Of a stretch of 64,000 nucleotides of DNA, positions 400 to 55,800 are shown one piece after another (within the stretch, counting starts at the first letter, position 1; each line of letters begins with the position of its first letter). The DNA comes from Malacoraja senta. Taxonomy: Eukaryota. The position numbers were made by a program, and so were the translations under genes. The notes under the pieces are model-generated. The model made no database searches. It had not been told where the DNA came from and saw only the letters and a list, made by a program, of their open reading frames with translations. Where the stretch lies: the NCBI GenBank assembly GCA_038087875.1, contig CM075987.1, positions 16,680,001 through 16,744,000 of the forward strand. The letters are read 5' to 3'.

Positions 400-1094
400 A
401 ATAGGTAACGTTTCGAGTCGACACCCTTCTTCAGACTGAACCTGAAGGGCTGAAGGGCCTGTTCCTGTGCTGTTACCATTCTATGTTCTGACCGGTCAGA
501 ACGGTCTCTTGCACAAATAACCTGTCAGTTATACAAGCAAATGAGTTTGTACACACTGTGTATGTGGGACCCCTGACAGGAATGCTCCTGAGGCTTGGAT
601 TAAGGAGCACAGGCTGTTCGTTGAGTGTCCCGGCCACAGACTCACATTGCATCTTTAATGCTCTAAATCTGCGGCTTCAATAAGCTGCTGATTCTGTGTT
701 GATTTCCAGTGGAGGATCTGCCAAGCGTCGGTTACACTGGCCCAACGATGCTTGAGGCAATCTAAATCTTGACTCTTTAACAATTTGGCCCGCAGGCCAG
801 GATGATGAACATTATGGGATGATCTGTGGGGTCCAGTTCTGTCGCAGAGACTCCCGTTTCCAAAAAACATTAAAACCTTGTGGAACCTATCATATCCCCA
901 CAGCTGAGTTTCTGCCTCTCATTTATACGACTCATAACCCTTGCTAAAATAAATCATTTTTGTGTTTTGATATTCATTTTACAGCACTGAGCACTTACAC
1001 CAAGATTTATTGCCCAGTCTCAGTTACCCTGAGGTGGGGGAGGTGTTTTGGAGAGCTTCATACCTCAATGATTAGATGCAGCAGTGGGCAACTT

Positions 1095-2240
1095 AGAGAC
1101 ATGGAGGCATATTGCTGTGCAGCACGGAAACAGCCCTTTCAGCCCAGTTTGTCCACGCTGGCTAAGTTAACATTTTGGGGACAGCATTTGCCTGCATTTG
1201 GCCCAGAGCCATCTAAACCCTTTCTACCCATACATCTGTCCAAATGTTTTTAAAAATCTATAATTGTATCCAGTTTTACAGCTTCTTCTGTCAGCTCATT
1301 ACAGATACGGACAAACTTCCGAGAGGAAAACGTTACTGCTGAGATCATTCTTTAATCTCTCCCCTATGCCCTCTAGATTTAGGTCAAAGGTTTCAAAGGT
1401 CTTTTATTGTCACGGTGTACCAATTAAGGTGCAGTGATATTCGTATTACCATGCAGCCATACTAAAACAAAAAGCAACAAGACACACAACTACATAAAAG
1501 TTAACATAAACATCCACCACAGTGGATTACCCACATTCCACACTGATGAAGGCAATAAAATCTAATCTTCCTCTCTCATTTTTCTCCTGCGGTCGGGGCA
1601 GTTGAATCATCCGTCGGGGCGATCGGAGTTCCCGCAGCCGGCGGTCGAAGCTCCCGCCTCGGGGCGGTCGAAGCTCCTGCGGCATGGAGCTCCCGAAGTC
1701 GGTCTCTAACCTGGGACCACGAGCTCCACGATGTTAAAGTCCGCAGGCTCCCGTTGTTGGAGCTCAGAGGTCGATCCCCGACAGGGATCGCCCGCTCCAC
1801 AATGGTGAGTCCGGCAGGCTTCCGCGGTGGAGCTCCCGAAGTCGGTCTCCAGCAAAGGCCGCCAACTCCTCGATGTTAGGCCGCAGTGCGGACGGAGATG
1901 CAATACGGAAAAACAACGGTAAGAAAAAAAGTTTCCCCCAACCCCCCCCCCCCCCACATAAAACCAGCTAAAGAACACTAAAACATACATTTAACACAAA
2001 CTAAAAATCACCAGAGAAGGAAGGGGCAGACAGACTGTTGGCGAGGCTGCCATTGCTGGCCATTGCTCCCTCTACCCTGCAGAAAAGACTCGGAGTATTC
2101 ACTTTATTCATGCCCCTCATGATCTTGTAGACCTCAGCAAGGTCACCCTCAGCCTCCTAGGCACCAGGGAATAAAGTTCCAGCCTATCCAACCTCTCCCT
2201 ATAACTCAATCACGCAGGCCCAGGTGACTTCCTGGGTCCA
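1095..2240 (-). mobile_element. Old CR1-type fragment interrupted by a GC-rich retro-element (about 1381-2060)
   Basis: Degraded CR1 3' sequence lies on both sides. The insert has internal GAGCTCCCGAAGTCGG repeats and a minus-strand AATAAA plus ACCTTTG-repeat tail. Confidence 0.6.
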
Positions 2241-2379
2241 CGGCATTATGTGGCAGCATCTCTTCTGTGTCAGTGTGGCACACTTGAAAGAGTGTTTTAA
2301 AGTAAAGAGGAAGTGGCAGAGGGATGGAGAGATTTAACAGGAGAATTGTTAAGCTTGATCCTCAGGCAGGAAATGTCTG

Positions 2380-5472: not shown

Positions 5473-5709
5473 CACGGCACCAGAGACCTGGGTTCGATCC
5501 TGACTTTGGGTGCTGTCTGTGACTGCCTGGGATTCCTCCGGGTACTTCGCTTTCCTCCCACATCCCATAGACATGTGTGTAGGTTTGTAGGGTAATTGTG
5601 TGGAACTCAGCAGGCGGGACAGAAGACCGCTTTGAACTGACTTCCAACTGGACTGCATGGAGCAGCTATAAGATAGACACAAAGTACTGGAGTAACTCAG
5701 TGGGTTAGG

Positions 5710-6040
5710 TAGCACAGTGGCGCAGCGGTAGAGTTGCTGCCTTACAGTGAATGTGGCGCCGGAGACCCGGGGTCGATCCTGACTACGGGTGCTGTCTGTA
5801 CAGAGTTTGTACCTTCTCCCCGTGACCTGCGTGGGTTTTCTCCGAGATCTTCGGTTTCCTCCCACACTCCAAAGACGTACAGGTATGTGGATTAATTGGC
5901 TCGGTAAATGTAAAAATTGTCCCTAGTTGGTATAGGATAGTGTTAATGTGCGGGGATCGCTGGTCGGCGCGGACCCGGTGGACCAAAAGGGCCTGTTTAC
6001 GCGCTGTATCTTTAAACTAAATTAAACTAAACTAAACTAA
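5710..6040 (+). mobile_element. HE1-type V-SINE nested in a minus-strand PLE-derived unit (about 5670-6092)
   Basis: Full SINE with (AAACT)n tail. The flanks join into a continuous PLE terminal sequence. Confidence 0.85.
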
Positions 6041-8319
6041 TCTCAGGAGAAAAAGGATAGGTGACATTTCGGGACGGGACCCTTCTTCAGACTTTGTTTC
6101 TAAATGGAGCAACTGGTGGACTGGAGTCATAGAGTCACCCAGCACAGAAACCGGCTCTTTGGCCCAATTAGTCTGTGCTGCCCAAGATATCTCTGAAAGC
6201 TAGTTCCATTGGCTGAGTTTGGTCCATTTCCCTTTAAACCTTTCTCTGCTGAATAACCATTGATATTTGATCTGGGTGTCTGAGCACCCATATCTTTAAA
6301 TGCATTATTAATGTATTTGTATGATTTGGGTAGAGGTCTGACAGGCGAGCAATTTAGTTTTAACATCTTCCAGCATTGATGGGAGAGATGTTGGGTACAA
6401 TTTCCATCCTGTCTCCCACCCTCCCAAAGCCTAATTTCCTCCGGGCACAGCCCAGGTCAGTAAAGCACCATTATGCAGCTGGGTGGCTTGGTAATAACGT
6501 TGAGGGTGGGAAATGATTCACACCCACGCCAGTCCACTTTATAGTAAGCTGTGCACTATCCCTGACGTCTCCGTACTGAGGGAGTGACTGGTTGGTCAAC
6601 CTAAGGAGTACTAGTTACACTGGTCAACCGGAGGAGTACCTTCAGCAACAGACTAGTTCCACCAAGATGCAGTACAGAATGCCACAGGAGATCCTTTTTC
6701 CCTGTAGCTATGAAACTGTACAACTCCTCCCCTTCTGTCGTGGGGTAGACTGACTCCCCTCCCCCCTCCCCCCCTCCCCTCCCAATCTTTCCACATCCCC
6801 AATCCTTTCCACTCGTCACTTTAATTTCATGTTTCATGTATCTTGTGTTTTATGACAGCTGGCAGACCAATTTCCCTCCTGGGATAAATAAAGTTCTATC
6901 GTATCTCATGGTGTAGAGTTTGCGTGTGACCATATGAGGTTCCTCCGGGTGTTCTGGTTTCCTCCTGCATCTCAAAGACATGCAGGTTTGTAGGTTAATT
7001 GGCCAGTGTAAATTCCTCTGGAGTGCATGTGAAAGTGGGATAACAGAACTAGCATGAACTGGTGATCAGTGGTCGGTGTGGACTCGGTGGGCCGAAGGGC
7101 CGGTTTTTAATGCTGTGTCTTTCAATCAATCAAAAGTGTTTGCGTGTGACCACGAGAGGGGCAGATCGAAGTCTTGCACATCTGCAAATGATATTTACTG
7201 CAGCTGGCAGCTATTGTGTGCTCCTCTGGAGCAGGACGTTAAACAAATTTGTGATGGAAACCATATGTTTTTGGAACAAGATTCTGTTGGAAGGGGTAGC
7301 TCGGGGCTATCTTTTCTGTTTCTTGCCCGAAATAACTCTTTCCTGTCTGCTTGCCCCCCATCAGCCACGAGTTTAATCCCTCCTGTGATCAGGAGCCAGA
7401 ATTACCCTGCCCTGATGGCTAGAGTATTGTCTCCATCTACACTTCAGGCGCCTTGGGAAAGCAGCCAGCTTAATCAAGGACCATTCGCATCCCGACCGTT
7501 CCCTCTTCTCCCCTCACCCATCAGGCACATGACACAAAAGATGAAAGCACATCCCCATCAGATGCAGGAACAGCTTCTTCCCTGCTATTATTGGACCACT
7601 GAATGGTCGTCCCATCAGCTAAGGTGTAGTCCTGATCACCCAACCTGGCCTCTTTTGCTGTAAATAATACTGTAACACTATATTCTGCACTCTGGTATTT
7701 CTCTTTTTGCACTCTCTGTTGCCCTTGTATATGGCTTGATTGCACTCATATATAGTATGATTTGATTTGGCTGAATACCACACAAACAAAAGCTTTTCAC
7801 TGCATCTCGATACACACTGAATAATAAATCAATACCAATCACAATGAGGCATGTTATGGTTAATTTGACTGCTTCATGCGAGGCACACTATTGCATTAGG
7901 TCACATTACAAAACCGCAGAGGCTGGAAATCTGAACTAAAAAACCAGTAACTGCTGGAAACGCCCATCAGGTCAGGCAGCATCTGTGGAAAGTGGAGCTC
8001 TGACCGGAAACGTTAACTTAACCGTTATTCTGTTTGTGTGTGTAATTGAGTGTAAACTGGATGGGTTTGACAGGGCACTGGCAATCCAACCCACCAGAAC
8101 AAGAAGGCACCCCGGCATTTCTAACTGTGATTGCTTCCCCAGTCATAAAGTCATCTTGTTGGGGCAATGTTGGCCTCGGACCTCTCGAACATTCTGGACT
8201 TTAAGCCATTGGTGGGTATTCTCTGAGCTCTGGCATTCCCATCCACCTCCTCTCCACTTCCTTCCCCCTCGCTCCTCACACCCTAACTCTTTGCCCCGTC
8301 TATTTTTCAATCTCAAAAC

Positions 8320-9058
8320 AAGAGTCAAGACAAGTCAAGAGAGTTTTATTGTCATATGTCCCAGATAGAACAATGACATTCTTACTTGTTGCAGCACAAC
8401 AGAATATGATATGACAAACGAGAGAGGGAAAAGAAAAGCTCAGTGTGTATAGATACACATACTCACAACATGCCCATATATATATATATATATACACATA
8501 CACACATACTCAAAAAAACAAACAAAACTCAACAATAATAATAATAGTCTATTGTAGTTCAGAGCCTATATGAGGTTGTAGTGTTTAATTGCCTGATGGC
8601 TGTAGGGAAGAAGCTGTTCCTGAACCAGGACGTTACCGTTTTCAGGCTCCTGTACCTTCTTCCCGATGGCAGCGGTGAAATGAGTGTGAGGCCAGGATGG
8701 TGTGGGTCTATGATGATGTAGGCTGCCTTTTTGAGGCAGCAACTCCAATAAATCCCTTTGATGGTGGGAAATCAGGGCACGTGATGGACTGGGCAGTGTT
8801 CACAACTTTTTGCAGTCTTTTCCGCTCCCAGACGTTCAAGTTGCCGATCCAGACAATGAAGCAACCAGTCAATTTGCTCTCTGCTGCGTATCTGTAGAAG
8901 TTCAAGAGAATCCTCTTTGACATACCGAATCTCCGTAATCTTCTCAGGAAGTAGAGGCACTGATGTGCTTTCCTTATAATTGCATCAGTGTGCTGGGTCC
9001 AGGAAAGATCTTCGTAAATATGCACGCCCAGGTATTTGAAGTTTTTGACCCTCTCCAG
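8320..9058 (-). mobile_element. Rex1/Babar-like (L2-related) LINE 3' fragment
   Basis: ORF 8708-9025 WTQHTDAIIRKAHQCLYFLRRLRRFG..LLNFYR is a post-RT region; (TCTTGAC)n tail. Confidence 0.75.
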
Positions 9059-11254
9059 TGAAAAGATATAACAATGTGTGCATTCCTGGAAAGTCCCTAT
9101 CAGTTTTACCTTGGCTGTGTATAATGCAAAGGATATATCAGATTTCCCTGTTTAATTTCACCATCAGTCTCCAGCTTTCCCCGTGATTAATGCCAGTAAC
9201 TCTGCACTACCTCACACCTCCTCCCAAACTACCTCTGCAGAACTTCAGATTAGTTCTCCAGCTGCCCCTGCCGCCTGCTGTAACCTCACACTTACTCCAG
9301 CTCCCCCCTGTACTATCCCAAGAGAGCGTGGAATTAAACCTCACTGATTTGATCATCCCCTTGAATTAAATCAGTTCCCTTTCCTATGCATCGTTCAACT
9401 CTCTCACCAGCCTTCCTACGTAATCACAGATGTGTTTAACCCATCTGGCTTTCAACCAATTGCCTCTTCCAGGAACATTTACATTCCCAGTTGAAAAGGG
9501 GAACACTCCTGGGAATAGTCCTCTTCTCGCTGCTAAATTCTGTTTGTTTTTTTCTCGATCAAATTGCACAGTTGACTGGACTGTCTTTAACACCAGCATC
9601 AACTTGCAATGTTTGCTCTTCAACACGGTGATCATGTTGATGATTTATAGTTGTCATATTCACTCTCTGAGGTGCGAATGGAATTTAGATTGCATCATTT
9701 ATTGCATTACTGTATATTGGACTGGAGTGCTTGCAAAAGCAGACATTTCACTGTATCTCTGAACGTTGACAACAAATTAACTAACTAACCAACTAAACTC
9801 TGGTGACGTGCCTGTTGCAATGGGAGCTCATCGTTTTCTCTGTGTTCCCATAAGTTAGAGTTTGGTCAGTTTTAGAAAGCTGCCAATCTGTGGACTTGGG
9901 GGAGAATACAGAACGGTACAGCACAGGAAAAGGCTCTTCTGCCCGCAATGTTCATGCCGAACATGCTTCTTTTAAGCTATCTCCTTCGTTTGTACATGAT
10001 CCCCATCCCTCCATTTGCTGCATATCCATGAGCCTATCCAAAAGTCTCTTAAACGCCACTGCCATATCTGCCTCCACCACCACCTTTAAGCTTTGCCCCT
10101 CTCAACTTAAAGCTATGGCCTCTAGTATTTGACATTTCTTCCCTGGGGATAAAGGTTCATTGTCAACCCTATCTACATCTGTCCTAATTTTATATATTTT
10201 AATCAGGTCTCCCCTCAGCCTCCGATGTTGCAGAGAAAACGATCCCAGTTTGCAGGTAGGGTGAATGCACAGAGTCTTTTGCCCAGGATAGGAGAATTAA
10301 GAACTAGAGGGAAAAAGGTTTAAGGTGAGAGGGGAAAGATTTAACAGGAACCTGAGGGGGCAGCTTCTTCATACAGAGGGTGGTGGGTGCATGCAACAAG
10401 TTGCCAGAGGAAGTAGTTGAGTGGGGCCAGTGTAGAGCGTGGCCATGGGATTGGGACCTCTCATTCACCCTGGTTCCTGCGATGCAAGGCGATTACTGAC
10501 GATGATCTGAATCTCCTTCTCTCTTGCTCTTGGCTGTTCTATCTCCAAACGCTCGCATTCCTGGCTCAGAGTCTGATTCTTAGCCCATCTGCTGGGCTTG
10601 TAAAGGGAGACAGGATGTGTAGATCTCTGGCAGCTCACGAGTGCACCGTTACTGGGATGCACCTGCGCCGTTGATATTCCCACAGCTACAAATTTTTATT
10701 CACACGTCTGCTGGCCATGGCACCTGAAGATGTGGAATTGGGGATTCATATCAATGGAGGGTGTCCTATGGTGAGTGTTTCATTGACCTTCTGATCAAAT
10801 AGTTATCATTAGGGACTGCAAAAATGTTTCCGATGTTAATGTTTACTTTTGCTGTAGATAATCCAAACACTGTAGTTTACATTACAGACATTCTCCAGGA
10901 CAAAAGCTTTCAGCTGCTAGAAACTTTCCCTTGTTGTATGTATCTCTGCCATTTGGCTTATTTGATCCCTCTCAGTGTTGCTGCAATTCCTATTCCGTCT
11001 TTCCCTCTGCTGATTCACTCTTTATCCCTATTTGCTGTCTTTTTCTCTACCTCTCTCCCTTCCCCTCCATCAATTCTCATTTATTTTCTTTTTATGTCTC
11101 CTTTCCGCCTCCATCTCCTCTCCCCCCATCTTGTCTCATTTCCTGTTCCCCACTGCGCTTTTTAATAACTAACAATCATGCAGCTTTGAATTACAAAAAA
11201 CTCTGATAAGCTGCATGCCAATGTTGGCAAATCCGGATGGTTCACTGGGTGACG

Positions 11255-11502: not shown

Positions 11503-12296
11503 ACATGGATTTAAAGGGGTCGTGGGAGCTCCTACAACCCACCACAGCCCCATTTCCTGCTCCATCTTCAAACTCACCAGGGCCCCATCTTCCATTGTCC
11601 TTTTAACCTCAGCGAGTTTGCTGGACATTTTATTGGAGTTCCGTGTGACATGAATTAAATAGTGAATTATAAGTATGTTGGAGTATTAACTGGTGTACCA
11701 TCCAGTGCTGTTGGCCAGTCCGGTGCCATCAAAGCCATGCTGTATTTCAAGAGGCCGTGGATACTCAGTTCTGGACTTTGTGCAGAGTTGAATCCAATAG
11801 ATTTTTGTACTTAGTGGGATTGAAGGAAGACAGGAATCTGTATTTTATTGAATGGTGGATCAGGTTCCAATGTTTGAATGCCAAAATGGTGCAGATGCTG
11901 GAAATCTGAGATAAATATAGGATAGTACTCAGCAAGCCAAGCAGCATCCGTGGAGAGAGGAACAGATTTAACAGAAAAACCAAGTCAGGATGATGTCAGA
12001 TTTGGCAGGGAATCTTCAGCTGATGTTGTTCCTCTGTATCTATTGCCATTGGCCTTCCTGGGGGGGTTTGTGATGCAATTGCCCACAGAGTCCTATTGAG
12101 GTGTTGCAGTGCATTTTGTAGATAGTACATTGCCGCAATGGTGCAACGGTGATGGAGGAAAATACTAGTGGATGGAAAGCCAACAAAGAGGGTGTCTCTG
12201 CCATAGAAGGACTTCCAGGAGACAGACCTTGCCTTATTAAACGTACCAACCAGCTCATTGCTTCCTGTCTTTAACACTGCATTTCCTCTGCTGTAG

Positions 12297-13483: not shown

Positions 13484-14290
13484 TTTGGCTACTCCCAATG
13501 TAGAACTGGCCAAGGCGATCTGTTGCTGACGGTGAATTTATGGACATAAGCTGGAACAAATCTTCCGTAGCTAAGACCATCAGATTGCGTACTGTACATG
13601 TGGGGCCGAGATGCTGTCCTCTCGCAAGTGTACATGAACAGGGCTACATGAAAGATGCCTGCCTCTTTAGGGACACATCTAAATGGTGTAAATCGGCATG
13701 TATCAAGGGTCCCAACCCGAAACTTCACCCATCTTTTTTCTCCAAAGGTGCTGTCTGACCCGCTGAGTTACTCCAGCAGTTTGTGTCTATCTTTGGTATG
13801 AACCTGCATCTGCAGTTCTTTCTTTCTACATCTTGTGGTCTATTGGTGGATGATGGAAGGCCTTCTGCTGATAAATCTCTCTCACTGTCTATATTTTGAT
13901 CAGATTTTTGTAAATCTGATGGTGTTATAGCTGAATCCCACAGGCTCTTGCTCTGAATTGAGCAATGTCATGTTTATTTCGCCCCAGTATTAAGTTCAGA
14001 GTGACTAAAATTTGCAATAATCCCTCCCAACAAACCCCACCCCATGCACTGACCACACTCGTTCCCGGCACACTTCGTCACTAATGACTCTGTGGTATTG
14101 GTTAAAACATTGGAACATTTGCAGACATGAGCCTCAGTAACTTTTTCCATTCGGTAATTTTTCCCATTGTACAAGTTCTTTCTTTGGCCCAGCTCTCGTG
14201 TGCTTTGGAGCAGTAAACACAGGACGTTAGTCTATGCCATTCTGGCCATTCTGTGGATGACGTGAAAGCAGAGCTTTGCTCGACATCTAG

Positions 14291-14610: not shown

Positions 14611-15470
14611 TAAGGCTGCCGCACCTAACCTTGGATGGGGGCAAAGAAGGAAAAAATGTTAATTGCTGGACATAGCCCGGGCAAAGATCTCACAATCTGC
14701 GTTGCAGTGAGAGACCGGAAGAGAGAGAATCATTTCTCATGGACAGAAGGACAAGGACGACCCTGAGGCATCAGAGGGGCACCTCCCCCAGGCATCAGTC
14801 TTTCCTCCAGGACTTGTGCATGGTCGCCCCTCGGACATCCCAGTCAACCTGTCCCGCCCTGGAGACCTGCCTCACGGGAGCTCAGTAAAGATCAGCAAAG
14901 TGTCCGGGACTTGACCAGGTTCAAGGATTTACTGACCTCGACTGGCAGAGGTGACGAGATAAATACACAAGGGGGAAGAAAATAAAAGATCAATGCTGAT
15001 GGTCACATTTAGAGATGGGCTTCTGTGGACACTGGCCGAGGCAGTACTCTGCTTCTATCCCACCTTAGATGTTTAAGGTGAGAGGGGCATCGTTTAAAGG
15101 AGAACGGGGCAAGTTGTTTTTACGCAGTGGTGCCAGGAAAACACTGCCAGGGGTGGTGGCGTAGTACATATTGTAGGGGCATTTAAAAAGCTTTCCGATA
15201 GGGAATGGAGGAATATGGGTCATGTGCAGGCAGAGGAGATTAGTTTAACTTGGCACCATGTTCGGCACGGACATTGTGGGCCGAAGGGCCCATTTCTGTG
15301 CTGTACCATTCTGTGTTCTATGACAGGATGGGTTTGGAGGAGCTCTGGACCAGCTGTTACATGTGTTAAATAAATCAGTGGTGATTCACACAGGCACTGG
15401 AGAGATTGAAGAGAGTTGTTCAGCTCCCATGATTAATATAAAATGGAGCTGGTCTGGGTTTGCAATCTGT

Positions 15471-40071: not shown

Positions 40072-41099
40072 GTAAGTGCACGTTAAACTTGTATCTGTAA
40101 ACATATGAAGCAGGTATGCAGGTTTGACCTCAATGCCCTGGGAATATTGCCTGGTTTTCTGCCTCTCCAGATCTCTGGATGGTTGAGCAGTTTACGCTGC
40201 TGCGATCGTATAGCTACCTCAGCCTGTACAACAGGGTTTTAAACCAGGTCTTTAACTTTCTATTCATTCGCACAATGTGGGGATCACAATATCCCTCAAA
40301 GCCCATGAAATGCTGCCTATGTCATCCAGGCCAGACCAAAAACAAGGACAAATTTCCTTTCCTAAAGGTTCAGTGAACTAAATAGACATGTAATCACAAT
40401 CAGATGCTATTACTGACATAAGCTTTCTACTTCCAAATTTAGTTTAATTGAAATTACACAATTATCATGATGTAATTATAACTATATCAATAGTCGAGGC
40501 CTTGGGTATGAGTTTGAGTTGAGTTTATTGTCACGTGTACTGAGGTACAGTGAAAAGCTTTCGTTGCGTGCTAACCAGTCAGCGGAAAGAGAATACAAGA
40601 TTACAACCGAGCCACCCATACTGTAGATACATGATACTCAAGTGACACAGCTGGTAAAGCTGTTTCCTCACTGTGTCAGACCCCGGTGCGATCCTGACCT
40701 CGAGTGCTGTCCGTGTAAAGCTTACTCCGGTTTCCTCCTGCATTCCAAAGACGTGGGGTTTGTAGGTTAATTGGCCTCATCAAATTGCACCGTGTGTGCA
40801 GGGAGTGGGTTAACACAAGACTAGCGTGAAAGGATGGTCAGCATAGACTTGGTGGACTGAAAGGCCTGTTTCCATGCTGTATCCCTAAACTAAACTAAAC
40901 CCCAACAATTTAACACTGTGCTATCAGAGCCCATCATTGTCCAAATGCTTATAGATTAGCTGTCTTTCTCTCCCTGCAAGTGGGCACGTATTTATCACTC
41001 CTCATTTTCCTCCCTTTGTCTCAGTTCCCTTTTCATCCCATCTCCCTCTCAAATCCACTAAGGGAGGTAATTATTGTGAAAGCCTGCACTGCTTAGCAG

Positions 41100-43336
41100 G
41101 GCAACGGTTCTGAACTTAAAGAAAGGTAACTTTGAGGGTATGAGACGTGAATTGGCCAAGATTGACTGGCAATTAGTTCTAAAAGGGTTGACGGTGGATA
41201 TGCAATGGAAGGCATTTAAAGACTGCATGGATGAACTACAAAAATTGTTCATCCCAGTTTGGCAAAAGAATAAATCAGGGAAGGTAGTGCATCCGTGGAT
41301 AACAAGGGAAATCAGGGATAGTATCAAAGCAAAAGATGATGCGTACAAATTAGCCAGAAAAAGCAGCATACCAGAGGACTGGGAGAAATTCGGAGACCAG
41401 CAGAGGAGGACAAAGGGCTTAATTAGGAAAGGGAAAATAGATTATGAAAAGAAACTGGCAGGGAACATAAAAACTGACTGCAAAAGTTTTTATAGATATG
41501 TGAAGAGAAAGAGATTAGTTAAAACAAATGTAGGTCCCTTGCAGTCAGAAACAGGTGAATTGATCATGGGGAACAAGGATATGGTGGACCAATTGAATAA
41601 CTACTTTGGTTCCGTCTTCACTAAGGAAGACATAAATAATCTGCCGGAAATAGCAGGGGGCCGCGGGTCAAAGGAGATGGAGGAACTGAGTGAAATCCAG
41701 GTTAGTCGGGAAGTGGTGTTGGGTAAATCGAATGGATTAAAGGCCGATAAATCACCAGGGCCAGATAGGCTGCATCCCAGAGTACTTAAGGAAGTAGCTC
41801 CAGAAATAGTGGATGCATTAGTGATAATTTTTCAAAACTCTTTAGATTCTGGAGTAGTTCCTGAGGATTGGAGGGTAGCAAACGTAACCCCACTTTTTAA
41901 GAAGGGAGGGAGAGAGAAAACGGGGAATTACAGACCAGTTAGTCTAACATCGGTAGTGGGGAAATTGCTAGAGTCAGTTATTAAAGATGGGATAGCAGCA
42001 CATTTGGAAAGTGGTGAAATCATTGGACAAAATCAGCATGGATTTACGAAAGGTAAATCGTGTCTGACGAATCTTATAGAATTTTTCGAGGATGTAACTA
42101 GTAGAGTGGATAGGGGAGAACCAGTGGATGTGTTGTATCTGGACTTTCAGAAGGCTTTCGACAAGGTACCACATAAGAGATTAGGATACAAACTTAAATC
42201 ACACGGTATTGGGGGTTCAGTATTGATGTGGATAGAGAACTGGCTGGCAAACAGGAAGCAAAGAGTAGGAGTAAACGGGTCCTTTTCACAATGGCAGGCA
42301 GTGACTAGTGGGGTACCGCAAGGCTCAGTGCTGGGACCCCAGCTATTTACAATTTATATTAATGATCTGGACGAGGGAATTGAAAGCAACATCTCCAAGT
42401 TTGCGGATGACACTAAGCTGGGGGGCAGTGTTAGCTGTGAGGAGGATGCTAGGAGACTGCAAGGTGACTTGGATAGGCTGGGTGAGTGGGCAAATATTTG
42501 GCAGATGCAGTATAATGTGGATAAATGTGAGGTTATCCACTTTGGTGGCAAAAACAGGAAGGCAGACTATTATCTAAATGGTGGCCGATTAGGAAATGGG
42601 GAGATGCAGCGAGACCTGGGTGTCATGGTACACCAGTCATCGAAAGTAGGCATGCAGGTGCAGCAGGCAGTGAAGAAAGCGAATGGAATGTTGGCCTTCA
42701 TAGCAAGAGGATTTGAGTATGGGAGCAGGGAGGTTCTACTGCAGTTGTACAGGGTCTTGGTGAGACCACACCTGGAGTATTGCGTACAGTTTTGGTCTCC
42801 AAATCTGAGGAAGGACATTATAGCCATAGAGGGAGTGCAGAGAAGGTTCACCAGACTGATTCCTGGGATGTCAGGACTTTCATATGAAGAAAGACTGGAT
42901 AGACTTGGCTTATACTCGCTAGAATTTAGGAGATTGAGAGGGGATCTTATAGAAACGTACAAAATTCTTATGGGATTGGACAGGCTAGATGCAGGAAGAT
43001 TGTTCCCGATGTTGGGGAAGTCCAGGACAAGGGGCACAGCTTAAGAATAAGGGGGAAATCCTTTAAGACCGAGATGAGGAAAAACTTTTTCACACAGAGA
43101 GTGGTGAATCTCTGGAACTCTCTGCCACAGAGGGTAGTTGAGGCCAGTTCATTGGCTATATTTAAGAGGGAGTTAGATGTGGCCCTTGTGGCTAAAGAGA
43201 TCTGGGGGAAGGAAAGAAGGCAGGTACGGGATACTGAGTTGGATGATCAGCCATGATCATATTGAATGGCGGTGCAGGCTCGAAGGGCCGAATGGCCTAC
43301 TCCTGCACCTATTTTCTATGTATCTATGTATCTATG
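41100..43336 (+). mobile_element. 5'-truncated CR1/HER1-type LINE with an open 634-aa reverse-transcriptase ORF (41140-43044)
   Basis: Motifs KSPGPD, NYRPVSLTS, QHGF, YLDFQKAFDKV, GVPQGSVLGP and KFADD. The APE endonuclease is missing. A 1-nt deletion near 43034 frameshifts the C-terminus. (TATCTATG)n tail. Confidence 0.97.
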
Positions 43337-43705: not shown

Positions 43706-43930
43706 CAGGACACAAAGTACTGGAGTAACTTAGCAGGTCAGGCAGCATCTCTGGAGAACATGGGCAGGTGACGTTGCGGGTTGAGACCCTTTTCAGACTG
43801 GTTGTGAAGAAGGGTCCGGGCTCGAAACATCACCTATCCACGTTTTCCAGAGATGCTGCCTGTCCTGCTGAGTTACTCCAGCACTTTGTGTCCAGTTTTT
43901 TAAACCAGCATCTGCAGTTCCTTGTGTCTA
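43706..43930. mobile_element. Fold-back PLE-derived unit
   Basis: Inverted arms meet at paired, degenerate hammerhead-like motifs (43768-43832). Confidence 0.8.
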
Positions 43931-45167: not shown

Positions 45168-48100
45168 GTGAGTCCTCCTTAATTAATTGGAAAGCATTCT
45201 GACTGGTTTAACAGAACCAAATGGCATTTAAGAGGTTTTTAGATGGGCACATGGATATGGCGGGTATGGATCAGTGGGGATTAATTTAACTTGGCATCAT
45301 GTTTGACACGGGCATGAAGGGCCCAACCACCTGTCCTACACTAAAGGTCACGAAGTGTTGGAATAACTCAGCAGGTCATGCAGCAAAGGTAGACACAAAA
45401 AGCTGGAGTATCTCAGCGGGTCAGGCATCACCTCTGAAGAAAAGAAATAGGTGATGTTTTCATTTGAGATCCTTCTCAAGTTCAAGTTGAAGTGACATTT
45501 ATGGTACAGTGAGATTGGAATTACCATACAGCCATACGAATAAAAAGAACACAATACACGATAGAATTGAACACGAACATCCCCACACAGCAGGATCAAC
45601 GTTTCCCACTGTGAGGGAAGGCAATAAAGTTCAGTCGTCTTCCTTTTCTTCAGAGTGGGAGTCAGGGAAGAGGGAAACTAGAGGTGTGATAAAGCTGGAG
45701 TAACTTAGCGGATCATGCAGCATCTCTGGAGAACATGGATCGGGATGTTTCAGGTCGAGACATTTCTTCAGGCTGATTGGAGAGGGGGGAGAAGAAAGCT
45801 TCCACTACGATTAATAATCCACAACCACCCGAAGCCTAACCATGTTCTCCAGAGATGCTGCCTGACCTGCTGAGTTACTCCAGCACTTTGTGTCCTTTTG
45901 GGTATTAACCAGCATCTGCAATTCTATGTTTCTGCACCTGTTCCTGTGTTGTACAGTTCTATTTTCTAAGTCTTACAGGTTTTTTTTGTTCATGGAAATG
46001 AATGCGACACATTCTTCTGGGTAAGTCCATGTTATTTTTTGCTAAAATTGTGTATTCAAGGGTGCCTGACTGATGTTTTCCAGCTGAATTCAATGAACAC
46101 CAATTGACATAAATCACCATTAACAGAAACACTATCAGATTGGTTTTAAAGGCTTAATATTAGAGAAAGGATTTATTGAATGAGTGTTTTGAGGCCTTGG
46201 GCAAGCTTATGTTGGGACATGCTGTGAGGAATCTTGATGTCAACACCAAGAATGCCCAGGGGCAAGAAACAACCTGATGCATGTTAGGAATTTGTGTAGA
46301 AAGTACACAGATGCTCCTGAATAAGAGGTACAAAAAAGGTTGAGCAAGTAGAAAGGTGAAAGTGAGGGTAGCATTGGGCAATTGGATAGTAAACTTCCTT
46401 TGGCATCCCACACAAATGTACTGGTATAAAGGCATGGGCATGGGCATGGACTTGGCCTTGCAAGGGCGTGGGCCCGAGCCACTGGCGTTGACTACGCTGT
46501 CAAGAACAAATCGGTTCGTAGAACAGGTCAGAGTTCCTGTGGGCCGAGGTGGATGGGCGAAGAGCGAAGGGGACCCGGCGTGTGGGGGCCGCCGAGAACA
46601 AAGGGGGAACCCGGCGTAGGGGGGGGGGGGGGGGGGGCTGCCGCCAAGAACTAGAGAGACCGGTGGTGGGTGGGGAATGAAGAAGGGACCAGCAATATTT
46701 AAGGGTGCTTTGTAACTTTGTCGGCGGCACTTTGTGGCGATTCTTTTGTGTACTGCGTCTATCTGCTGTCTATCTATTAATGTGCAGAAATACAAAGATG
46801 AGATCTACCTATCTGGCTGGAAGCTTGCTCACCCTTATGACAGAACAGACAGACAGTCAACGTGTCTCCACTCAATGATAGCTGCCTGCTGAGTGTTGCC
46901 AACACCTTATGTTTCTAGTTCAGGATCAGCCAAATGATCTGCAATGGTCTTGTTCCTTTCTCTCTCTTGAAATGTGTGAGCTGTTAAACAAGGCAGCGGA
47001 ACGCCAGGGAGATATGTAGAGGGAAAGGAATGTGAAGTAACCACAGCCATCATAACCAGCGTTCCAGAGAACAGCTGGAACTGCTTGAACTGATGCAATA
47101 AATTACAGCGTGTTTATAGAATGCGGGAATACATCAGTGAAAGAATATTCCTCGTGTTCTCCTGCTTCCTTCTCCACGTGACCAAGTCTCTGTCAATAGC
47201 TGTCACCTCGCCTTGGAGTGGGAATGCGGCCAAAATCTTGAACAGTAACATATGAAGCAGTTATCATCAAGTTATGTAAAGGAAAAATAAGATGTAGGTT
47301 ATGACAAGACCGTGCTTCAAGCATATCGACAGGAAGATGACTCCATTGGAATGAGCTTTCTCTCCTGCCAATTATACCTTCCATGAGGACTGTGTTTTTT
47401 CCAACACAGTTTAGTGTCTCTGCACTCTCTGCATGTTAAAAATATTCTTAACGGCCCAGAAATCAGCAGCATTTTCTGGATTATCCAGTGGAGAGGATGT
47501 TTCCACTAGTGGGAGAGTCTAGGATCAGAGGCCATAGCCTCAGAATAAAAGGACAGATCTTTAGAAAGGAAGAATTTTTTTTAGTGAGTGGGTGGTGAAT
47601 TTGTGGAATTCATTGCCACAGAAGGCTGTGGAGGCCAAGTCAATTAATATTTTTAAGGTGGAGATTGACAGGTTCTTGATTAGTACGGGTGTCAGGGGTT
47701 ATGGGGATAAGGCAGGAGAATGGGGTTGAGAGGGAAATACAGATCAGCCATGATTGAATGGTGGTGTATACTTGATGGGCCAAATGGCCTAATTCTGCTC
47801 CTATGACATGAATTTATGAGTTTGTTCCCTCAGGATTGAGAGCTGGAACTGTGGACGTGGCCTCAGAATAAAGGGTCTAATAGTTTGGACAGAAATAAGA
47901 ATGCCTTTTGTCACTGCGGCGCGTGAGTCTTTTGAATTCTCTACCTCCAGCCTGTCGTTGAGTATATTCAAACCTGAGAACGATCAGCTTATTACAACAG
48001 TAACGGATTAAGGCAATTTGAGTATTGGGCTGATACTGAACGGCTGATCATACGCAAGGAATGTATTGGTTTGTTAATTATTGTCACGTGTACTGAGGCT

Positions 48101-49615
48101 CAGTGAAAAGCTTTGCTTTGCTTCTACCCAAACAGATCTGATGTGCCATACATAAATACAATCAAGACAAATTCAAGTGGTTGTGAGGGTTATGGGGAGA
48201 AGGCAGGAGAATGGGGTTGAGAGGGGAAGATAGCTCAGCCATGATTGAATGGCAAAGTAGACTTGATGGGTTGAATGGCCTAATGCTGCTCCTATAACTT
48301 CTGAACTGATGAAGTACAATAGATAGAGCAAAGGGGAAGATGCAGAGTGCAGAATGTAGCACGACAGTTTTATAAACAAGTTCCAATGTTCACAGTGGGG
48401 GAAGAGGTGAATCAGACAGTACCCTAGCTCATGGAAGGGTCATTCAGAAGCCTCATAAAAGAGAGGAAGAAGCTGTTCCTCAGTCTGTTGGTGCGCGCTT
48501 TCAAGCTTCAAGCAACAGTATTGTCTACCGTTTCCATATTTTTGTCCAGTATTGAAAAACATTCCATAACTTAGCCATCCCAAACTTGTTTGCAAGGGAA
48601 TAAACATGCTGGAGCTTGTCCTACCTGAGGGCATACATTGGAGCTTCTGTGACACATCTGATGGAAATCTTTCTTGAGCTGTTTATTTTCACATATAATG
48701 GAGCTCTAAACCTGTGACAACCTTGTGAAAGTTCAATGCCTTCAACATACCTTATGTGTTATAGTATTGCTTGCAGCAAATCGCACCAAACTATATTCAC
48801 TTAATGAATGAGCAAAACATAAAATGCCGGAGGAACTCAGTAGGTCAGGCAGCATCTGAGGAGGGAATGGACAGACACTGTTTTGGGTCAGGACCCTTCT
48901 TCGGACACCATATGTTAGACTGGTACTTTGTTCCTCATTAGTCTGAAGAAGGGTCCCGACTTGAAACGTGCTCAGTCAGTTCTTGTTGCCCGGGCCACTG
49001 AGTTCCTCCAGCACTTTGTGTTTTGTTCACGACTCCAGCATCTGCAGTCGCTTGTGTCTCCATTTCACCGAATACAACACTGAAGGTGGTGGTCGTCTTA
49101 CATTGCTGACCAATATTTATTTATGAAGTGAAGTGTTTCCTACTTTTAAAAGCATCTTCGTGCAAAGTAATTATTTCCCACTGCATTCTCTGACAGCATT
49201 CCTATCGGCACCGACTTGCCAAAACGTAGTCTCGAGGGTTGTTCATGGATCATCCTCAAAACTCTTCACCTGTCATCGTACATGGGCCACATGTCGTGGG
49301 TCAATTGTACTATAGCTGTCCCTGAAAAGGCAAGAGCTAAATATACCTTGGCCCAGAGTCCTGAGCATTGTTCTTTGGCACTGGATGATGGTTTATAAAT
49401 AATTCCTCTCTGTAGCTCTTGGAGCGTGTGCAGTGTAACACAAGAGGATGACTGCTGAGTATTTTTACATGAAAATGACTTTACCCGCTGGCTGCCTGGG
49501 AAGTAGCATTTCATCCAGCACCTGTTTCAGTTCATCGTTCGAACTGACGCTGGCCATGAAATTGGCAGAGTGCTCCTTCGTGTGGGCAATCCGCTTGTTA
49601 GATGGGCTGTTTCTG

Positions 49616-50772
49616 GCAGACACAAGGGACTGCAGATGCTGGAATCTTGCGTAGAACACTAAGTGCTGTAGTAACTCAGCGGGTCTGGCAACATCTCTGG
49701 AAGACATGGATAGACAACATTTCTGGTCGGGACCCTTCTTCAGACTGATTGTAATAGGGGGCGAGAAAGCTGGAAAAGAGAGGTGGGGGGGGGGCGGCGA
49801 GACAAAGCCTGCCAAGTGATAGGTGGAAGCAGGTGAGGGGGGGGAGGGGGTGGATTTGAGGATGGGTGGACAGAGATGAAAAGGCGACTAAAGTAGACAA
49901 GGAGACAAAAGAATGCAAAATAAGGTGACTAATTATAGACTGGCGAGAAAGCTGGAAGAGAGGTCGGGGCAGGACAAAGCCAGGCAAGTGATAGGTGGAA
50001 GCGGGTGAGGAGGGTTTGATTGGGAGATGGTTGGACAAACGCCAAAGGCTGTGAGATAAGGAGATATGGAGGGAAGAGATGTGAAACATTGTCAAAGGTT
50101 GTAGGTGGAAGAGAACAGAGGAAGGGGGGAGAAGTGTGGGTTAAATGGCTGCGCATCCAGATAGGGCACAGAGTAGACAGTGGGGAAAGAAGGGGGGTGT
50201 TAGTTAGTTGCTTAAAATTGGAGAATTCATCCCCACCCCTTCCCTGTGCCCCACGTGGATGTGCACCCATTTCTCCAACACACCTACCCCCTTTCCCCTT
50301 CCCACATCCTCTTCCGCCTATGTCCCTTATCTTTTTTATAAAATATTTTTATTAGAAGCAAGCACATATCATAATAAAACCATTTCATGTATATCATTCG
50401 TACATTGTTAATATTATCAGTTGTGAATTGGTTCTGCTTCTAGATTTTTTTTATATAGATAGAGAGTGAGAGAGAAAGAAAAAAATGTCTGTCCCTTATC
50501 TGACCACATTTCACACCTTATCTCATGGCTTTTTGTCTTTTCATCTCTGGCCTTTATCTACCTAACCCCACTCACCTGTATCCACCTATCACTTGCCAGG
50601 TTTTGTCCCACCCCACCTCTTTTCCAGCTCACTCCCCCATACCACAATCAGCGTGAAGAAGGGTCCCGACCCAAAACGTCACCCATCTATGTTCTCCGGG
50701 GATGCTGCCTGACCCGCTGCGTTACGCCAGCACTGTGTCTTTTGTTGTAAACTAGCATCTGCAGTTCCTTGT
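49616..50772. mobile_element. Large inverted PLE pseudo-LTR arrangement
   Basis: A minus copy (to about 50230, ending EFSNFKQL) faces a plus copy. Hammerhead-like motifs lie near 49715-49743 (-) and 50654-50680 (+). Confidence 0.7.
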
Positions 50773-52477
50773 GTGGAAGAGAACCTGACATGACTACAGA
50801 AGCAGACATTGTTAAAAAATGTTCCATTTCCTTTCTTCAGTTTGAACCAAACTTGCTCAGTAAAATGGCCACAAATCTGATCACAGCATGGAGGAGCATT
50901 TTCCAGTGTTGGCATCTTTCAGTGTTTCGCATTGGTGAGATGATGTTGTGGATGTTTAAAGCAGTAATGTTTAATCATTGTTCAGCATTGGCGATCTCTT
51001 GCTGGTATTGAAGCTAGATCGGGGATGGTGCAGAATGGATTCTAATTGTCAATTTTGTCTACTGCTTGGCAGCATTACAGAATAGTTCACGTCTACAGAG
51101 AAACAGTGAAATGCTTGTTCTGCACGCTATCCAGTCAAAATCACAAAATCACAAAATCACAAAATCCCGAAACTTTGCCTATTTCCTTCGCTCCATAGAT
51201 GCTGCTGCACCCGCTGAGTTCCTCCAGCATTTTTGTGTACCTTCTGCAAAGTCCATTCTTGGCTCGAGTAGATATGCAGTTTCTTATATTCTCAGGTTAA
51301 TGCCCAGTGTTCTGGGGGCTCTGGATCAATGATGTATGGGTTAGCGTGGGCCAGCTTGGCGCTGTTGGATGCTTCCACTGCCGCTCAGTGCAGCTGCCGC
51401 AGTCTGCATTACCTTTTAAAGACAGAAATGTGACATCCAAGCACAACATGGCAGATTTGGGGGTCCTTTCCCCTTCAATCTCATTTCTGCATCAATTTCC
51501 CTTCCAAGCTGCACTTAACACAAGACAAAATGGACTAATGTTTAAGTTGGAAAGGGTGGAGAAGAGATTGATCAGGATGTTGACTGTGCTCACGGCTTTG
51601 AGTTGTAGGGGAGAGGTTGCACAGTCTGGGACAGTCAGCCTCTTTCCCGGGGCAGAGGATCCTAAAACTAGAGGGGATAGGCTTAAGGTGAGGGGGGAGA
51701 GATTTATGAGACAATTTTTGGAGCACCTTTTTCACTCGGTAAGTTGTCTGTATCTGGAATGAGCTGCCAGAGGAAGCTATAGACGAAGATACAATTATGA
51801 CTAAAAAAAACATTTGTTCAGGATAGGGAGGGATATGAGTCAAATGCAGCCAAATGAGGCGAGGTCAATATGCCAACTTGTCCAGCATGGACATAATGGG
51901 GTGAATGCTGCACAGCTCTGTAACTGCATCATGTTTCTATATTGGCATTTGTGAAGATGGTGAAAATCTATAAGATTTTTGCCATCTTTGCAATCTAAAT
52001 CTAACAAGAACGTAAGAGCATAAGAAAGAGTGTAAGCCATTCAACCTGCTCCACCATGCGACCAAGTCATGGATGATCTTATGCCTCAAATTCACTCTCA
52101 CAATTGATGCACATATACAGATTTCATTAGTATTCAGAATTCCCTCTGTCTCAGCCTTGGACATATTTAAAGGTGAAGCAGCCACAAACATTAGTGGGTG
52201 GATAATTCCTTCTACATCACGAGCTTTCTCCTTGGTTCATTAAGAAATGATCAGCCCCTAGTCCTGAGTCTGTGACCCTGATTCTGTACTGAGGTACAGC
52301 AAGAAGTTGGCTGTGAATCGTTAAGTCTCCAGGTGTATGGTGGAGATAAATGATGATAGAGGCACTGTCTCCTTGGCATCCGTCAGTGTGAGTGGATGCC
52401 CAACAAAGTGTGAGTGGAGGGACAACAAAACTCAGTGGAAGGGTTCGTAGTGAGATGTGACCTCAAGATAATCCTGA

Positions 52478-52808
52478 AGATAGACACAAAATTCTAGAGT
52501 ACCTCCGCGGGTCAAGCTGCATCTCTGGGGGAAAAGGAATAGGTGATGTTTAGGGTCGAGACCCGTCAACAAACTGAGTCAGGGAGGGGGACTCTAGGGG
52601 TTTGGGAAGGTACAGAATAAAGCAGAGCCTGCATCGATGAATCAGGAAAGGTGGAGCCCACCATGGTCCATTGTTGGCTGGAGACGAGGTGATGACAAAG
52701 GAATACTGATGGTGAAATTAGCACTAGGGTGGGGGAGGGCTGGAGAGAGAGGGAATGCAAGGGTTGCTTGAAGTTAGAGAAATCAATATTCATGCTGTTG
52801 GGTTGTCG
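52478..52808 (-). mobile_element. PLE 3' fragment with about 12-bp TSD
   Basis: QPNSMNIDFSNFK ORF end; flanks AGATAATCCTGA / AGATAATTCTGA. Confidence 0.7.
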
Positions 52809-55800
52809 AGATAATTCTGATCAGAGTATACTGCTGGAAGCGCTCTGAACTTTAATGTTTATATTGGAAGCTGTTTAAAAATGGCCCAAGATAAGGGGAT
52901 CCGACACTCAGGTGGATCTGACCAGCTGGAGAGAGCCTAGTCTTCCAACTCTGCCTTTAGTTGACAGATATCACCCATGTGAGAGCTAGCAGTGCAACAG
53001 ATGCTGGTGTTCATGTACCATTACGTTGCGTTGAGGAGGCTTCTGCTGCCTCACTTAGAAAACTACACTCTCGTCATCTCCGTTGCACAAATTGGCAGCA
53101 TCTCCAGACAAAACATCAACTCCAAGCTGGTTAAGAATCACTTTTAGTTTTCTTTTGATGATTGAGTTTTCTTGGCTAGGAACTCAAATTCTAGTTGAGT
53201 TCCTTAACTTTGCTAAAAGAAACAAGTTGTCAAAAGAAACAACCTTTTAATTGTAAACAGTGTGATGTTCCCGCAGTGGTTGGAAAGGCAGCTGGGTATT
53301 TATATTCAGCAAAGCTTGGCAGAGGAAGTATTATAAGGCGGCTCCTGTTAATCTAAAGGACGAATGCAATAATGTGGCATTTCTTCAGATTCAGGTCTGC
53401 CAGCTCTTTAGTCGATGTTTATGTTCTCTCTTTGAGCTGGGAGTGTCCTACTTCTGATAGCTCAGCTCAACAGAGCTACTAAATAATCAAAAGGGTACAA
53501 TTTCACACCTAATCCTACTGAAAAGTCATGTTGGAGAAGGCAAGTGGAGCCAACAATGATCAAGTTAGACTATTTATAACTAAAGAGAATTTCAAAGCAG
53601 TCCCTTTACATCGGTGGAGACACCAGAAACTACAAAAGCTGGAATCGAGAGCAAAGCACAACACTCAGTGGTAGACAACAAATGCTGGAGAAACTCACAC
53701 TCAGTGGGTCAGCAACATCTATGGAGGGAATAGGCAAACAATGTTTCGGGTCTGAAGAAGTGTTCCATCCTGAAATATCCACAGATGCTGCCTGACCCAC
53801 TCAGTTCCTCCAGAACTTTGTGTTTTGCCTTTTTATCTGTGATGTTTTAAAAAAAAACTTACATCTTGTATATTTCCTAATTACAAAATGTGCCCTCCTA
53901 TTGTCAGCTTTTTTGTGTTTTCCTCCTTGGAAGGATTTGGTCCATAATGCCTGCTTTTGTGCTGACTCTCAGTGTTAGTTCATAACCTTGCAAGTTCCAA
54001 TTGCATCCTTTGTGCCGACAATTGCCTTGGTCATTATCTTTTCCTATTCACTTTTCCCTTCTCATCAGCTCAGTCTGCAACATATCCACAGATTAAACAT
54101 GATTAAAAGCCTTGGTTCAGAGATTACATTTTGAGTACAGCCACTGATTCAAGTACCTTTCACCTTTCCTAAATCTCTTTTCCCCTGAGTTTTTTCTCCA
54201 GATGATTTTTATACAAGTGAATGCAAAATGTGGCACAAATCAATGCAAACAGACACCATTTCCAGCAAACCAGCATACTGCAGTAGAAATAGTACAGGGA
54301 CGGACATCTTGTCATATTTAAGAATGCTCATGCATCTAAAAATGAGTTTACCACAAAGGAATTATCCATTGTCTGGTCCACCTCCAGTAATACAACTTTA
54401 ACTTTCCGAAAATGCTTTCTACAAATATAGAAACATGACTAGTAATTTTGATGTACAGAAGCCAGTTCCAATATCAATTTTAGAAATATACAGGGAAAGC
54501 TTTGGATGTCTGCCAGGTTTACAGTGGAACTGGCTATGAGAAGTACTTGAAAAAAAATTAACCCAAAAGATTGCACAAGGTTGAACCACATGAAGTTAGA
54601 ACAGTACAGCACAGGAATAGGTCTGTCAGCCCACAATGTCCGTACCGAACATGATGCCATGTTAAACTGATCTCCACTGCCTGCACATAATCCATATCCC
54701 TTCATTTTCTGCACATCCTGTGCCTATCTAAAAGCCTCCTAAATGTCACTATCATATATCTGCCGTGACCACCACCCCTGGCAGTACATTCCAGGCACCC
54801 CTCGCTCTCTGGGTAAATCAAATTGCCCCATACATTTCCATTGCCCATCTTGCCTTAAAGGTATGCACTGTGGTCCTTGATATTCCCACTCTGGGAAAAA
54901 GAGTCTGTCTATCCTATCTGTGCCAATCACAATTTTATATACTTCTTAGATCTCTATGTAATTTGCCAGATTAAAATTCCCCAGAGATTCTGTACCAATT
55001 TCAAGCCAATTTTGTGAAGACCCTGTGTAAAACCTTAATGTTGCACACCTTGGAAAATTGTCCTCCTGTCTCTAACTCTAAAGACTCTCTGTGCTCAGTT
55101 TAGTTTCTCACTGCATTAAGAGATTTGACTAATGGAGTATAAATGCAACACAAATTTGCTTCTGAAGGAAATGCACTGACTTTTGGAAGCATAAACACCC
55201 ACACTACAGATACTGCTACACCTTTAAGTAAAGTTGGGCAAAGAACTGAAGTGCTGAATAACTTCTCTCAGAGTACAAGATCTTGGCCCTCTCATGTAAG
55301 TAGCTTGGCTTGTGAAAGGAGAAAGCCAATTATTATCCAGCCAAGCTTCCATCATGTTAGAAACTGCTATTTTACTGAGTGAGGAAACTGAACAAATTAT
55401 TGCAGGAGCCATATATATATTTGTAATCAGCATAGCATTGCACCGAATGTGAAAATAAATAACATACATTATATGACGTACAATTCCTTGTTGAACCACT
55501 CTATCAGTTAATTCCTCATAGGAAATAATAAGAGGATTTCAAACCATATTTCCCACTGAGGTAACTATATTATACGCCTGGCAGAATGATGTAATGCATA
55601 TAGCACTCTGGTAGTGTGCAAACTCACATAAAAAGGGACTGGAACATTCGAGCTTCATATTATTGTTGGCCACAAGGTGGAATTCTGACCTCAGGAAATT
55701 TCTGAAACACAGAAACGTAATGACTGAGTATTTAATGTTCTTGAACACATGACTCGGTGCTGAGACAACCCAGACAGGACACATCTGCAGAGTACGCTGT

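Follow-up and report, generated by a model that had tools for sequence, protein, structure and literature searches.

A repeated hammerhead motif in a skate genome lies in what appear to be short, decayed end-pieces of Penelope-like elements

We analysed a window of 64,000 nucleotides (nt) from the skate Malacoraja senta (GenBank assembly GCA_038087875.1, contig CM075987.1, positions 16,680,001 to 16,744,000, forward strand), in which a short motif resembling a hammerhead ribozyme is repeated on both strands. To judge from its sequence, this motif is a genuine minimal hammerhead, and it sits in what are very probably short, degraded terminal fragments of Penelope-like elements (PLEs). An initial annotation of the window had listed five plus-strand and seven minus-strand copies, and all 12 were recovered with an offset of 0-2 nt. 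The abundance that it had noted is also above chance: a fuzzy search returned 11, 13, 14 and 18 matches at 4, 5, 6 and 7 mismatches, compared with means of 0, 0, 0 and 0.15 in 20 first-order Markov simulations.

A profile hidden Markov model trained on 25 window copies, which therefore match by construction, found 32 pieces in the window, 20 on the minus strand and 12 on the plus strand, and none in the reversed window. Because 16 of these pieces are the arms of eight inverted pairs and three more are split or duplicated parts, they represent about 21 insertion loci. In what follows, positions are counted from C3, the base that opens the hammerhead core, which is position 0; the predicted cut falls between +27 and +28. 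The repeated unit is larger than the motif on which the initial annotation centred, as the copies extend 65-100 nt beyond the predicted cut. They belong to several subfamilies that differ in the upstream region, and their 3' ends come at two alternative points, near +94 and at +122 to +128; the stretch between the two is called the tail. The copies are listed here with their target-site duplications (TSDs) and with the remains of an open reading frame (ORF) where these are present.

397 to 439, minus: short copy that starts at about -5 and is ended at +37 by another repeat; 11 core bases, four stem II pairs (one of them G-U), ACGU, both stem I pairs, and GUU
5670 to 6093, minus: single copy running from -3 to about +93, tail absent; a repeat of about 330 nt (5715-6039) interrupts it at +50
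7911 to 8014, minus: old, divergent 3' piece with tail
11890 to 11958, minus: old 3' piece with tail, without the hammerhead core
13704 to 13826, plus: solo copy, about +5 to the tail end
15471 to 15695, both strands: head-to-head pair, junction centred on -1 (15600); tail on the minus arm, none on the plus arm; perfect 16-base-pair (bp) TSD (15455-15470 and 15696-15711)
19147 to 19234, minus: short copy from about -5, with an internal deletion past the cut site; no tail
25059 to 25152, minus: short copy from -1, no tail; core, ACGU and GUC intact, with U-U in stem II and one stem I pair only
27250 to 27309, minus: 3' piece, +66 to the tail end
27412 to 27583, minus: solo copy, about -50 to the tail end; 16/17-bp TSD (27395-27411 and 27584-27600)
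27945 to 28953, plus: longest copy, with the ORF-end stub LGSLQPNGMNTESSNFR (stop at 28001-28003), a pyrimidine-rich spacer of about 280 nt, the hammerhead at 28283-28310 and a tail at its end; split at +50 by an unrelated insertion of about 550 nt (28334-28882)
39460 to 39617, both strands: head-to-head pair without core, arms from about +35 and +21; tail on the minus arm only; perfect 15-bp TSD (39445-39459 and 39618-39632)
43707 to 43929, both strands: head-to-head pair, arms from about -9 and 0; tail on the plus arm only
45341 to 45690, minus: second-subfamily copy from about -45, its core broken by a repeat (about 45480-45640); +50 to +94 duplicated after it
45690 to 45933, both strands: head-to-head pair whose minus arm starts at about -30 and whose plus arm, which has a deletion, starts at about +16; only the plus arm is tailed
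48809 to 49059, both strands: head-to-head pair, arms from about -2 and -3, separated by 31 nt; tail on the plus arm only
49618 to 50774, both strands: long head-to-head pair meeting at 50226-50229; both arms tailed; the minus arm begins with the last five ORF codons, and its spacer is partly duplicated
51165 to 51240, plus: short copy from about +16, no tail
52478 to 52805, minus: second-subfamily copy with the ORF-end stub QPNSMNIDFSNFK, a spacer of about 190 nt and a decayed hammerhead, no tail; 13/15-bp TSD (52463-52477 and 52806-52820)
53606 to 53828, both strands: head-to-head pair whose tailed minus arm starts at +15 and whose plus arm, lacking a tail, starts at -2
61037 to 61176, both strands: head-to-head pair without core, arms from +24 and +65, tail on the plus arm only; outside the range given by the initial annotation

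On the 5' side of the piece at 7911-8014, back-to-back with this minus-strand tail piece, 7975-8030 (plus) holds a possible hammerhead remnant (GAAACGTTAAC), possibly from an older, different PLE family.

The motif has the make-up of a PLE-type minimal type I hammerhead, in agreement with the initial annotation. Among the 19 copies that span the core (CUGANGA ... GAAA ... UH), the expected base is the majority at all 11 columns, the extra nucleotide at 9a, an A between 9 and 10.1, is present in 16, and the pair G10.1-C11.1 and a palindromic ACGU at 15.1-16.1 complete the pattern. ACGT is the commonest form of the palindrome (7/19), and its CpG decay products ACAT or ATGT account for another 8/19. 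All 11 core bases plus H17 are intact in 8/19 copies, and three of the 19 (434, 25150 and 28283) retain core, H17 and ACGU together; the whole descriptor is satisfied only by the copy at 407-434, whose triplet is GUU. Stem II, previously drawn as five pairs closed by a 2-nt loop, is instead a helix of four (G-C, G-C, G-C, U-A; 84% of cells paired) around a 4-nt loop, the 2-nt loop being ruled out. Helix I has two contiguous pairs, plus two beyond a 2x2 loop, with 79% of cells paired; its variation is one-sided toward G-U, and it costs +0.9 kcal/mol in the monomer. A check with the Rfam hammerhead models, which had been proposed with the motif, gave no match in the window at E<=1; the miRNA-like Rfam matches at 39.5 kb are the inverted pair located there. 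Copies diverge from the consensus by a median of 16.5% (29 pieces), and CpG sites are mismatched at 29%, with 45 of 55 such changes being C>T or G>A, the deamination type.

Minimal hammerheads of this kind were described by Cervera and de la Pena in 2014 (PMC4209133) in the pseudo-long terminal repeats (pLTRs) of metazoan PLEs, including fish Neptune, Poseidon and Xena elements, with thousands of examples in the genomes of fish, coelacanth and frog. As reported there, they are mostly single dispersed motifs, with some opposite-strand pairs, and are weakly active even as dimers. The skate copies agree with that description in being type I, in lacking helix III beyond the palindromic 15.1-16.1, in the extra 9/10.1 nucleotide and G10.1-C11.1 pair, and in occurring mainly as single motifs with opposite-strand pairs 100-700 bp apart. 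They differ in their shorter helices, with 4 bp in helix II and 2 bp (+2 after the 2x2 loop) in helix I against 7-8 and 4-5 bp in S. mansoni, and cartilaginous fishes go unmentioned in the sections of that account consulted here. PLE pseudo-LTR minimal hammerheads are thus a known class, described across fishes.

The PLE origin put forward earlier is supported by the anatomy of the insertions. Eight of the approximately 21 loci are head-to-head pairs, and in seven of the eight a tail of 31-34 nt sits on exactly one arm (p=0.035). A search over 20 units, and then over 23 boundary sets, gave clear TSDs at four loci (16/16, 15/15, 16/17 and 13/15 bp), and these define 3' ends at +94, +94, about +122 and +128. 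The minus-strand copy at 27.4 kb has its own TSD, which rules out that it forms one inverted pair with the plus-strand copy at 28.3 kb. Insertions of endonuclease-positive (EN+) PLEs share this truncation, inverted neighbour, one-end tail, TSDs and solo pLTRs: Craig et al. (bioRxiv 10.1101/2021.04.23.441226) describe insertions that are truncated 5', lie next to an inverted copy and carry, mostly at one end, a tail of 30-40 bp, and Arkhipova et al. 2013 (PMC3846280) describe inverted pLTRs with TSDs as well as solo pLTRs. The TSDs of 15-17 bp in the skate are longer than the 8-10 bp in the rotifer PLE examples of PMC3846280.

The layout downstream of the core has a counterpart in Poseidon_Ac of Anolis, for which Frangieh et al. 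2024 (PMC11167929) place the tail between two internal starts of reverse transcription, downstream of the hammerhead. They report that the Poseidon_Ac ribozyme needs protein and that inactivating mutants leave insertion unchanged. In both cases the hammerhead is followed by two reverse transcriptase (RT) start sites bounding a tail, as we read the skate copies, and the cut is not an insertion end; the skate elements differ in that they probably belong to the Neptune clade, have a UG-rich start region and are known here from sequence alone. Both 3' ends lie after a CCAGCA box and finish in TTGTGTC-like sequence. A test for coding after a conserved ATG at +50 gave a CCAGCA-box spacing divisible by 3 in 7 of 12 measurable, related copies, three of the 15 rows having been left out as mis-parsed. 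From +44 to +115 (e.g. 43848-43918) the copies could form an 8-bp stem around a small hairpin, straddling the tail boundary, with 88% of cells paired and no covariation among copies; it is a candidate RT-binding structure. Two different repeats are inserted in PLE copies at the identical spot, +50 after GAGAT (6040 and 28333), which may reflect chance or a shared target preference.

The weakest link in the case is the one to a PLE ORF. The initial annotation placed the motif downstream of such an ORF in its longer copies; this stands for three copies only, each of which opens with an ORF-like end of 17, 13 or 5 codons. In Fig. S2 of PMC8557442, the stub pattern L-x-P-x-G-[LM]-N, with the stop after it, is like the endonuclease ends of Neptune and Naiad and unlike those of Poseidon. 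Contigs of three sequencing runs aligned to 27860-28335 (476 nt) numbered 1,375, 15,426 and 10,033, a summed depth that is not a copy number. In these contigs the ORF-end stub of the 28283 copy is itself repeated and the family majority reads NIEFSNF, the majority letters restore stem II of that copy, and most copies continue into the downstream block. The stub pattern, the stop just after it, its C-terminal position and the presence of a hammerhead make Neptune the likely clade, and the source elements would be endonuclease-positive PLEs, probably of that clade, in at least two or three subfamilies. The two longest copies (27945 and 52805) start 40-55 nt ahead of the ORF stop, a geometry close to that in D. 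virilis, where a start site lies 46 bp ahead of the pLTR intron (PMC2377424), and a second RNA start may lie near the beginnings of these copies.

The 5' ends of the copies cluster at the front edge of the hammerhead. Among 30 ends placed by eye, 10 lie at -6 to +1, compared with the 1.1 expected if truncation were constant (p about 2e-8), and the count is 8/28 (p about 3e-6) when two pairs are each counted once; this interval was picked post hoc and is still significant after correction for about 120 windows. Near the cut site (+24 to +31) there are 2/30 ends versus 2.35 expected. Therefore, the hammerhead cut does not set the insert ends, while the front edge often does. In the contigs, cover climbs 12-33-fold from bin 28260-28275 to bin 28276-28291, and loose contig ends accumulate ahead of 28278 in each of the three runs (65, 338 and 278 contigs, with an agreement of 0.33-0.37) and, in a single run, ahead of 28280; part of this signal comes from other subfamilies, whose spacers differ. 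The front edge reads TCAGT, which we take to fit the initiator (Inr) consensus with +1 at -3. It is also a pyrimidine tract plus CAG, and its TCAG is self-complementary with the CTGA of the core. The clustering of one third of the 5' ends at this front edge does not appear in the sections of Craig et al. and PMC3846280 consulted here. Our literature search found no report of such clustering and no paper on skate or shark hammerheads; subscription papers, Repbase or bioRxiv supplements may contain either, and Li et al. 2026 sampled one chondrichthyan.

We consider it highly probable that the copies are short, dead insertion products of EN+ PLEs and that the unit is a pLTR end module. Such a module would run from the ORF end, where present, through a pyrimidine-rich spacer and a minimal type I hammerhead to a structured region of 65-100 nt holding two reverse-transcription start sites. 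The GIY-YIG endonuclease would nick the target, following the enzymology of PMC11167929 and Craig et al. 2021, and reverse transcription would start internally, about 94 or 125-128 nt past the core. The cDNA would mostly be short, a second short cDNA, in inverted orientation, would often be attached to it head-to-head, one of the two arms bearing the tail, and the target would be left with a duplication of 15-17 bp. A tandem transcript would have these start sites in its 5' pLTR as well, and many cDNAs would therefore reach the 5' end of the RNA and run off after 95-130 nt; this would account for the accumulation of 5' ends at the front edge. The hammerhead, if it ever acts, would do so in the RNA of the master element, weakly, as a dimer or with protein assistance, and the intronic copies would decay without function. 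PLE-type hammerheads are described as weak, dimeric or protein-assisted, dimer cleavage being the work of Lunse et al. 2016 as cited in PMC6765202. The short pieces are, in sum, the expected leftovers of ordinary PLE transposition.

Several results pull the other way. A six-frame motif scan of the window gave nothing convincing for RT or GIY-YIG remnants, and the ORF stub, a mutated and short query, matched no Pfam family and no protein homologue, so that PLE identity rests on the anatomy and a 17-residue pattern; of the proposed PLE origin, the insertion anatomy and an endonuclease-like C-terminal stub hold, and the RT or full GIY-YIG domain is missing from the window. Pattern scans of viral, metagenome and prokaryote genome collections for longer relatives gave 0 matches. 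Clear TSDs are confined to four of the about 21 loci, one head-to-head pair carries tails on both arms, and the region in which reverse transcription would start is UG-rich, compared with AC-rich as described in the anole. No helix shows covariation (one two-sided pair, as high in 490/500 shuffles), and the consensus folds no better than shuffles (z-scores -0.8 to +0.6). Among the 5' ends placed by eye, unrecognised upstream subfamily sequence would pass as flank, and the self-complement TCAG-N-CTGA blurs the ends by up to 5 nt. Finally, the core has fewer non-CpG mismatches than the downstream block (12/200, 6%, versus 162/1220, 13%; p=0.002), which could mean selection after insertion; ascertainment and subfamily differences yield the same. 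We prefer to read the better-kept core as constraint on the master element plus ascertainment, with which later selection is compatible.

The cause of the 5'-end cluster is the point on which alternatives compete most closely. Our preferred reading is that the cluster, with its Inr-like TCAGT, suggests run-off of the RT at the RNA 5' end. Fold-back template switching at TCAG-N-CTGA, nicking or trimming by the element's own endonuclease, and an end related to a CAG acceptor-like site at -1 are, taken together, about as likely, and form a serious possibility for the cluster only. The inversion at 15.6 kb is centred exactly on -1, which speaks for this group of alternatives; against it, non-inverted copies (434, 6090 and 25150) begin there as well. 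Nicking has a precedent in the anole enzyme, which nicks ATT near its own ORF-pLTR junction (PMC11167929). An acceptor would fit the pyrimidine tract plus CAG ahead of the core in the long copies, and helix I is where the pLTR intron of D. virilis stops, with a pyrimidine tract plus CAG there (PMC4209133; PMC2377424). However, the sequence ahead of six short copies is not the ORF end that splicing would have placed there (best 11/20), a GT donor is present in only one of the three ORF-end copies, and no spliced retrocopy joining the ORF end to the hammerhead was found among 15 of 237 contig joints.

Returning to run-off, we advance a more specific version of it tentatively, as a possibility that we would not favour as a whole. 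The insertion ends would mark the start of the template RNA of a Neptune-type PLE, at TCAGT, three bases before the core, and the short units would be complete run-off copies of the 5' pLTR, possibly re-transcribed in a SINE-like manner (SINE, short interspersed nuclear element). The hammerhead would lie at the RNA 5' end with a helix I arm of 3 nt and be copied uncleaved, and it may be a switch of translation or timing, not a device for template excision. A step further, and unlikely in our judgement, is a self-propagating mini-element, that is, a module of 95-130 nt transcribed from its own Inr start and copied in trans by the PLE protein in the fashion of a SINE. It would produce the cluster at -6 to +1 and the loose contig ends with heterogeneous flanks before 28278 and 28280, and in rotifers, pLTRs are all that mobilisation in trans requires in cis (PMC3846280). 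Yet 20/30 5' ends lie elsewhere, the short copies have subfamily-specific letters in common with the long ORF-bearing ones, no diagnostic specific to the short units was seen, and run-off from the 5' pLTR of full-length transcripts yields the same ends without a separate family.

The description of the copies as a non-autonomous, retrozyme-like family is not supported by this analysis: there are no head-to-tail repeats in the window, the ends are not at the cut site, and several subfamilies with different upstream regions are present. A weaker form of the idea, with short RNAs limited to the pLTR being copied in trans, would be compatible with the data. By definition, retrozymes consist of units repeated head to tail, each containing a hammerhead, and at least two such units are consecutive (PMC7229834; bioRxiv 10.64898/2026.07.22.740005). 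The skate copies resemble non-LTR retrozymes, for which hammerhead excision, circularisation and re-insertion would be the route, in their type I hammerhead, non-coding nature and pLTR kinship; such elements are reported in one chondrichthyan genome with a proposed descent from pLTRs (bioRxiv 10.64898/2026.07.22.740005), and one contig (run X1) joins 28333 back to 27970, a kind of joint that partial PLE tandems also produce. By contrast, none of the 32 TRF tandem-repeat rows of the window holds the motif, and the nearest same-strand cores are 291 nt apart, in different subfamilies, one of them interrupted. The units end away from the cut (2/30 5' ends near it; 3' ends 65-100 nt beyond), and in place of the minimal motif seen here, the coral retrozymes of PMC7229834 have canonical hammerheads. 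A retrozyme origin is thus very improbable, and the label should go.

The copies lie within and around one host gene.

4843 to 57211, plus: COLGALT (procollagen galactosyltransferase), 11 exon matches in order

Comparison of one exon (39944-40072) with known proteins gave 98% identity to a procollagen galactosyltransferase from a skate, 81-91% to those from other batoids, and a match to human COLGALT1 in PDB. Because the COLGALT exons span 4843-57211 in order, most PLE copies are intronic. Some copies could, in principle, have been exapted as active intronic ribozymes acting on COLGALT pre-mRNA, an idea that draws on the better-kept core positions and on the 12/32 pieces that lie on the sense strand of the gene. 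CpG decay, however, strikes G12 and the ACGU palindrome, the sole sense copy with core and ACGU (28283) has an A-C in stem II, and the pieces show no significant strand bias (20 minus versus 12 plus, p=0.22). By nearest-neighbour energies, from a model that leaves out core contacts, a cross-dimer through stem II (-20.8 kcal/mol) is more stable than the double-hammerhead (-9.4 to -12.7 kcal/mol). We regard exaptation as scarcely credible.

Other repeats share the window. An open stretch of 654 codons at 41080-43330 (plus) contains an RVT_1 domain (E 2.4e-32) and looks like what we take to be a young CR1-type long interspersed nuclear element (LINE); 5'-truncated relatives, up to 94% identical, lie at 17765-18500, 20563-21097 and 59611-60185. 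A fragment at 8711-9151 (minus) matches Pfam ALKBH8_N (E 1.4e-11) and is probably the C-terminal part of another LINE family. Abundant repeats of about 300-330 nt, 75-83% identical to one another (5715-6039, 18543-18841, 24176-24511 and 30981-31285), are presumably a SINE-like family.

As a ribozyme discovery the motif carries little weight, the class being already known. The junctions described here argue against hammerhead cleavage defining the PLE template, and if the template RNA does start at TCAGT, the short units would be the PLE counterpart of a strong-stop DNA that integrates. With about 21 loci per 64 kb, the skate genome offers very many junctions at which to read RT starts, RNA 5' ends and inversion points. 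Set beside Craig et al. 2021 and PMC11167929, the skate copies thus form a natural data set on PLE transposition, its late steps and the role of the hammerhead.

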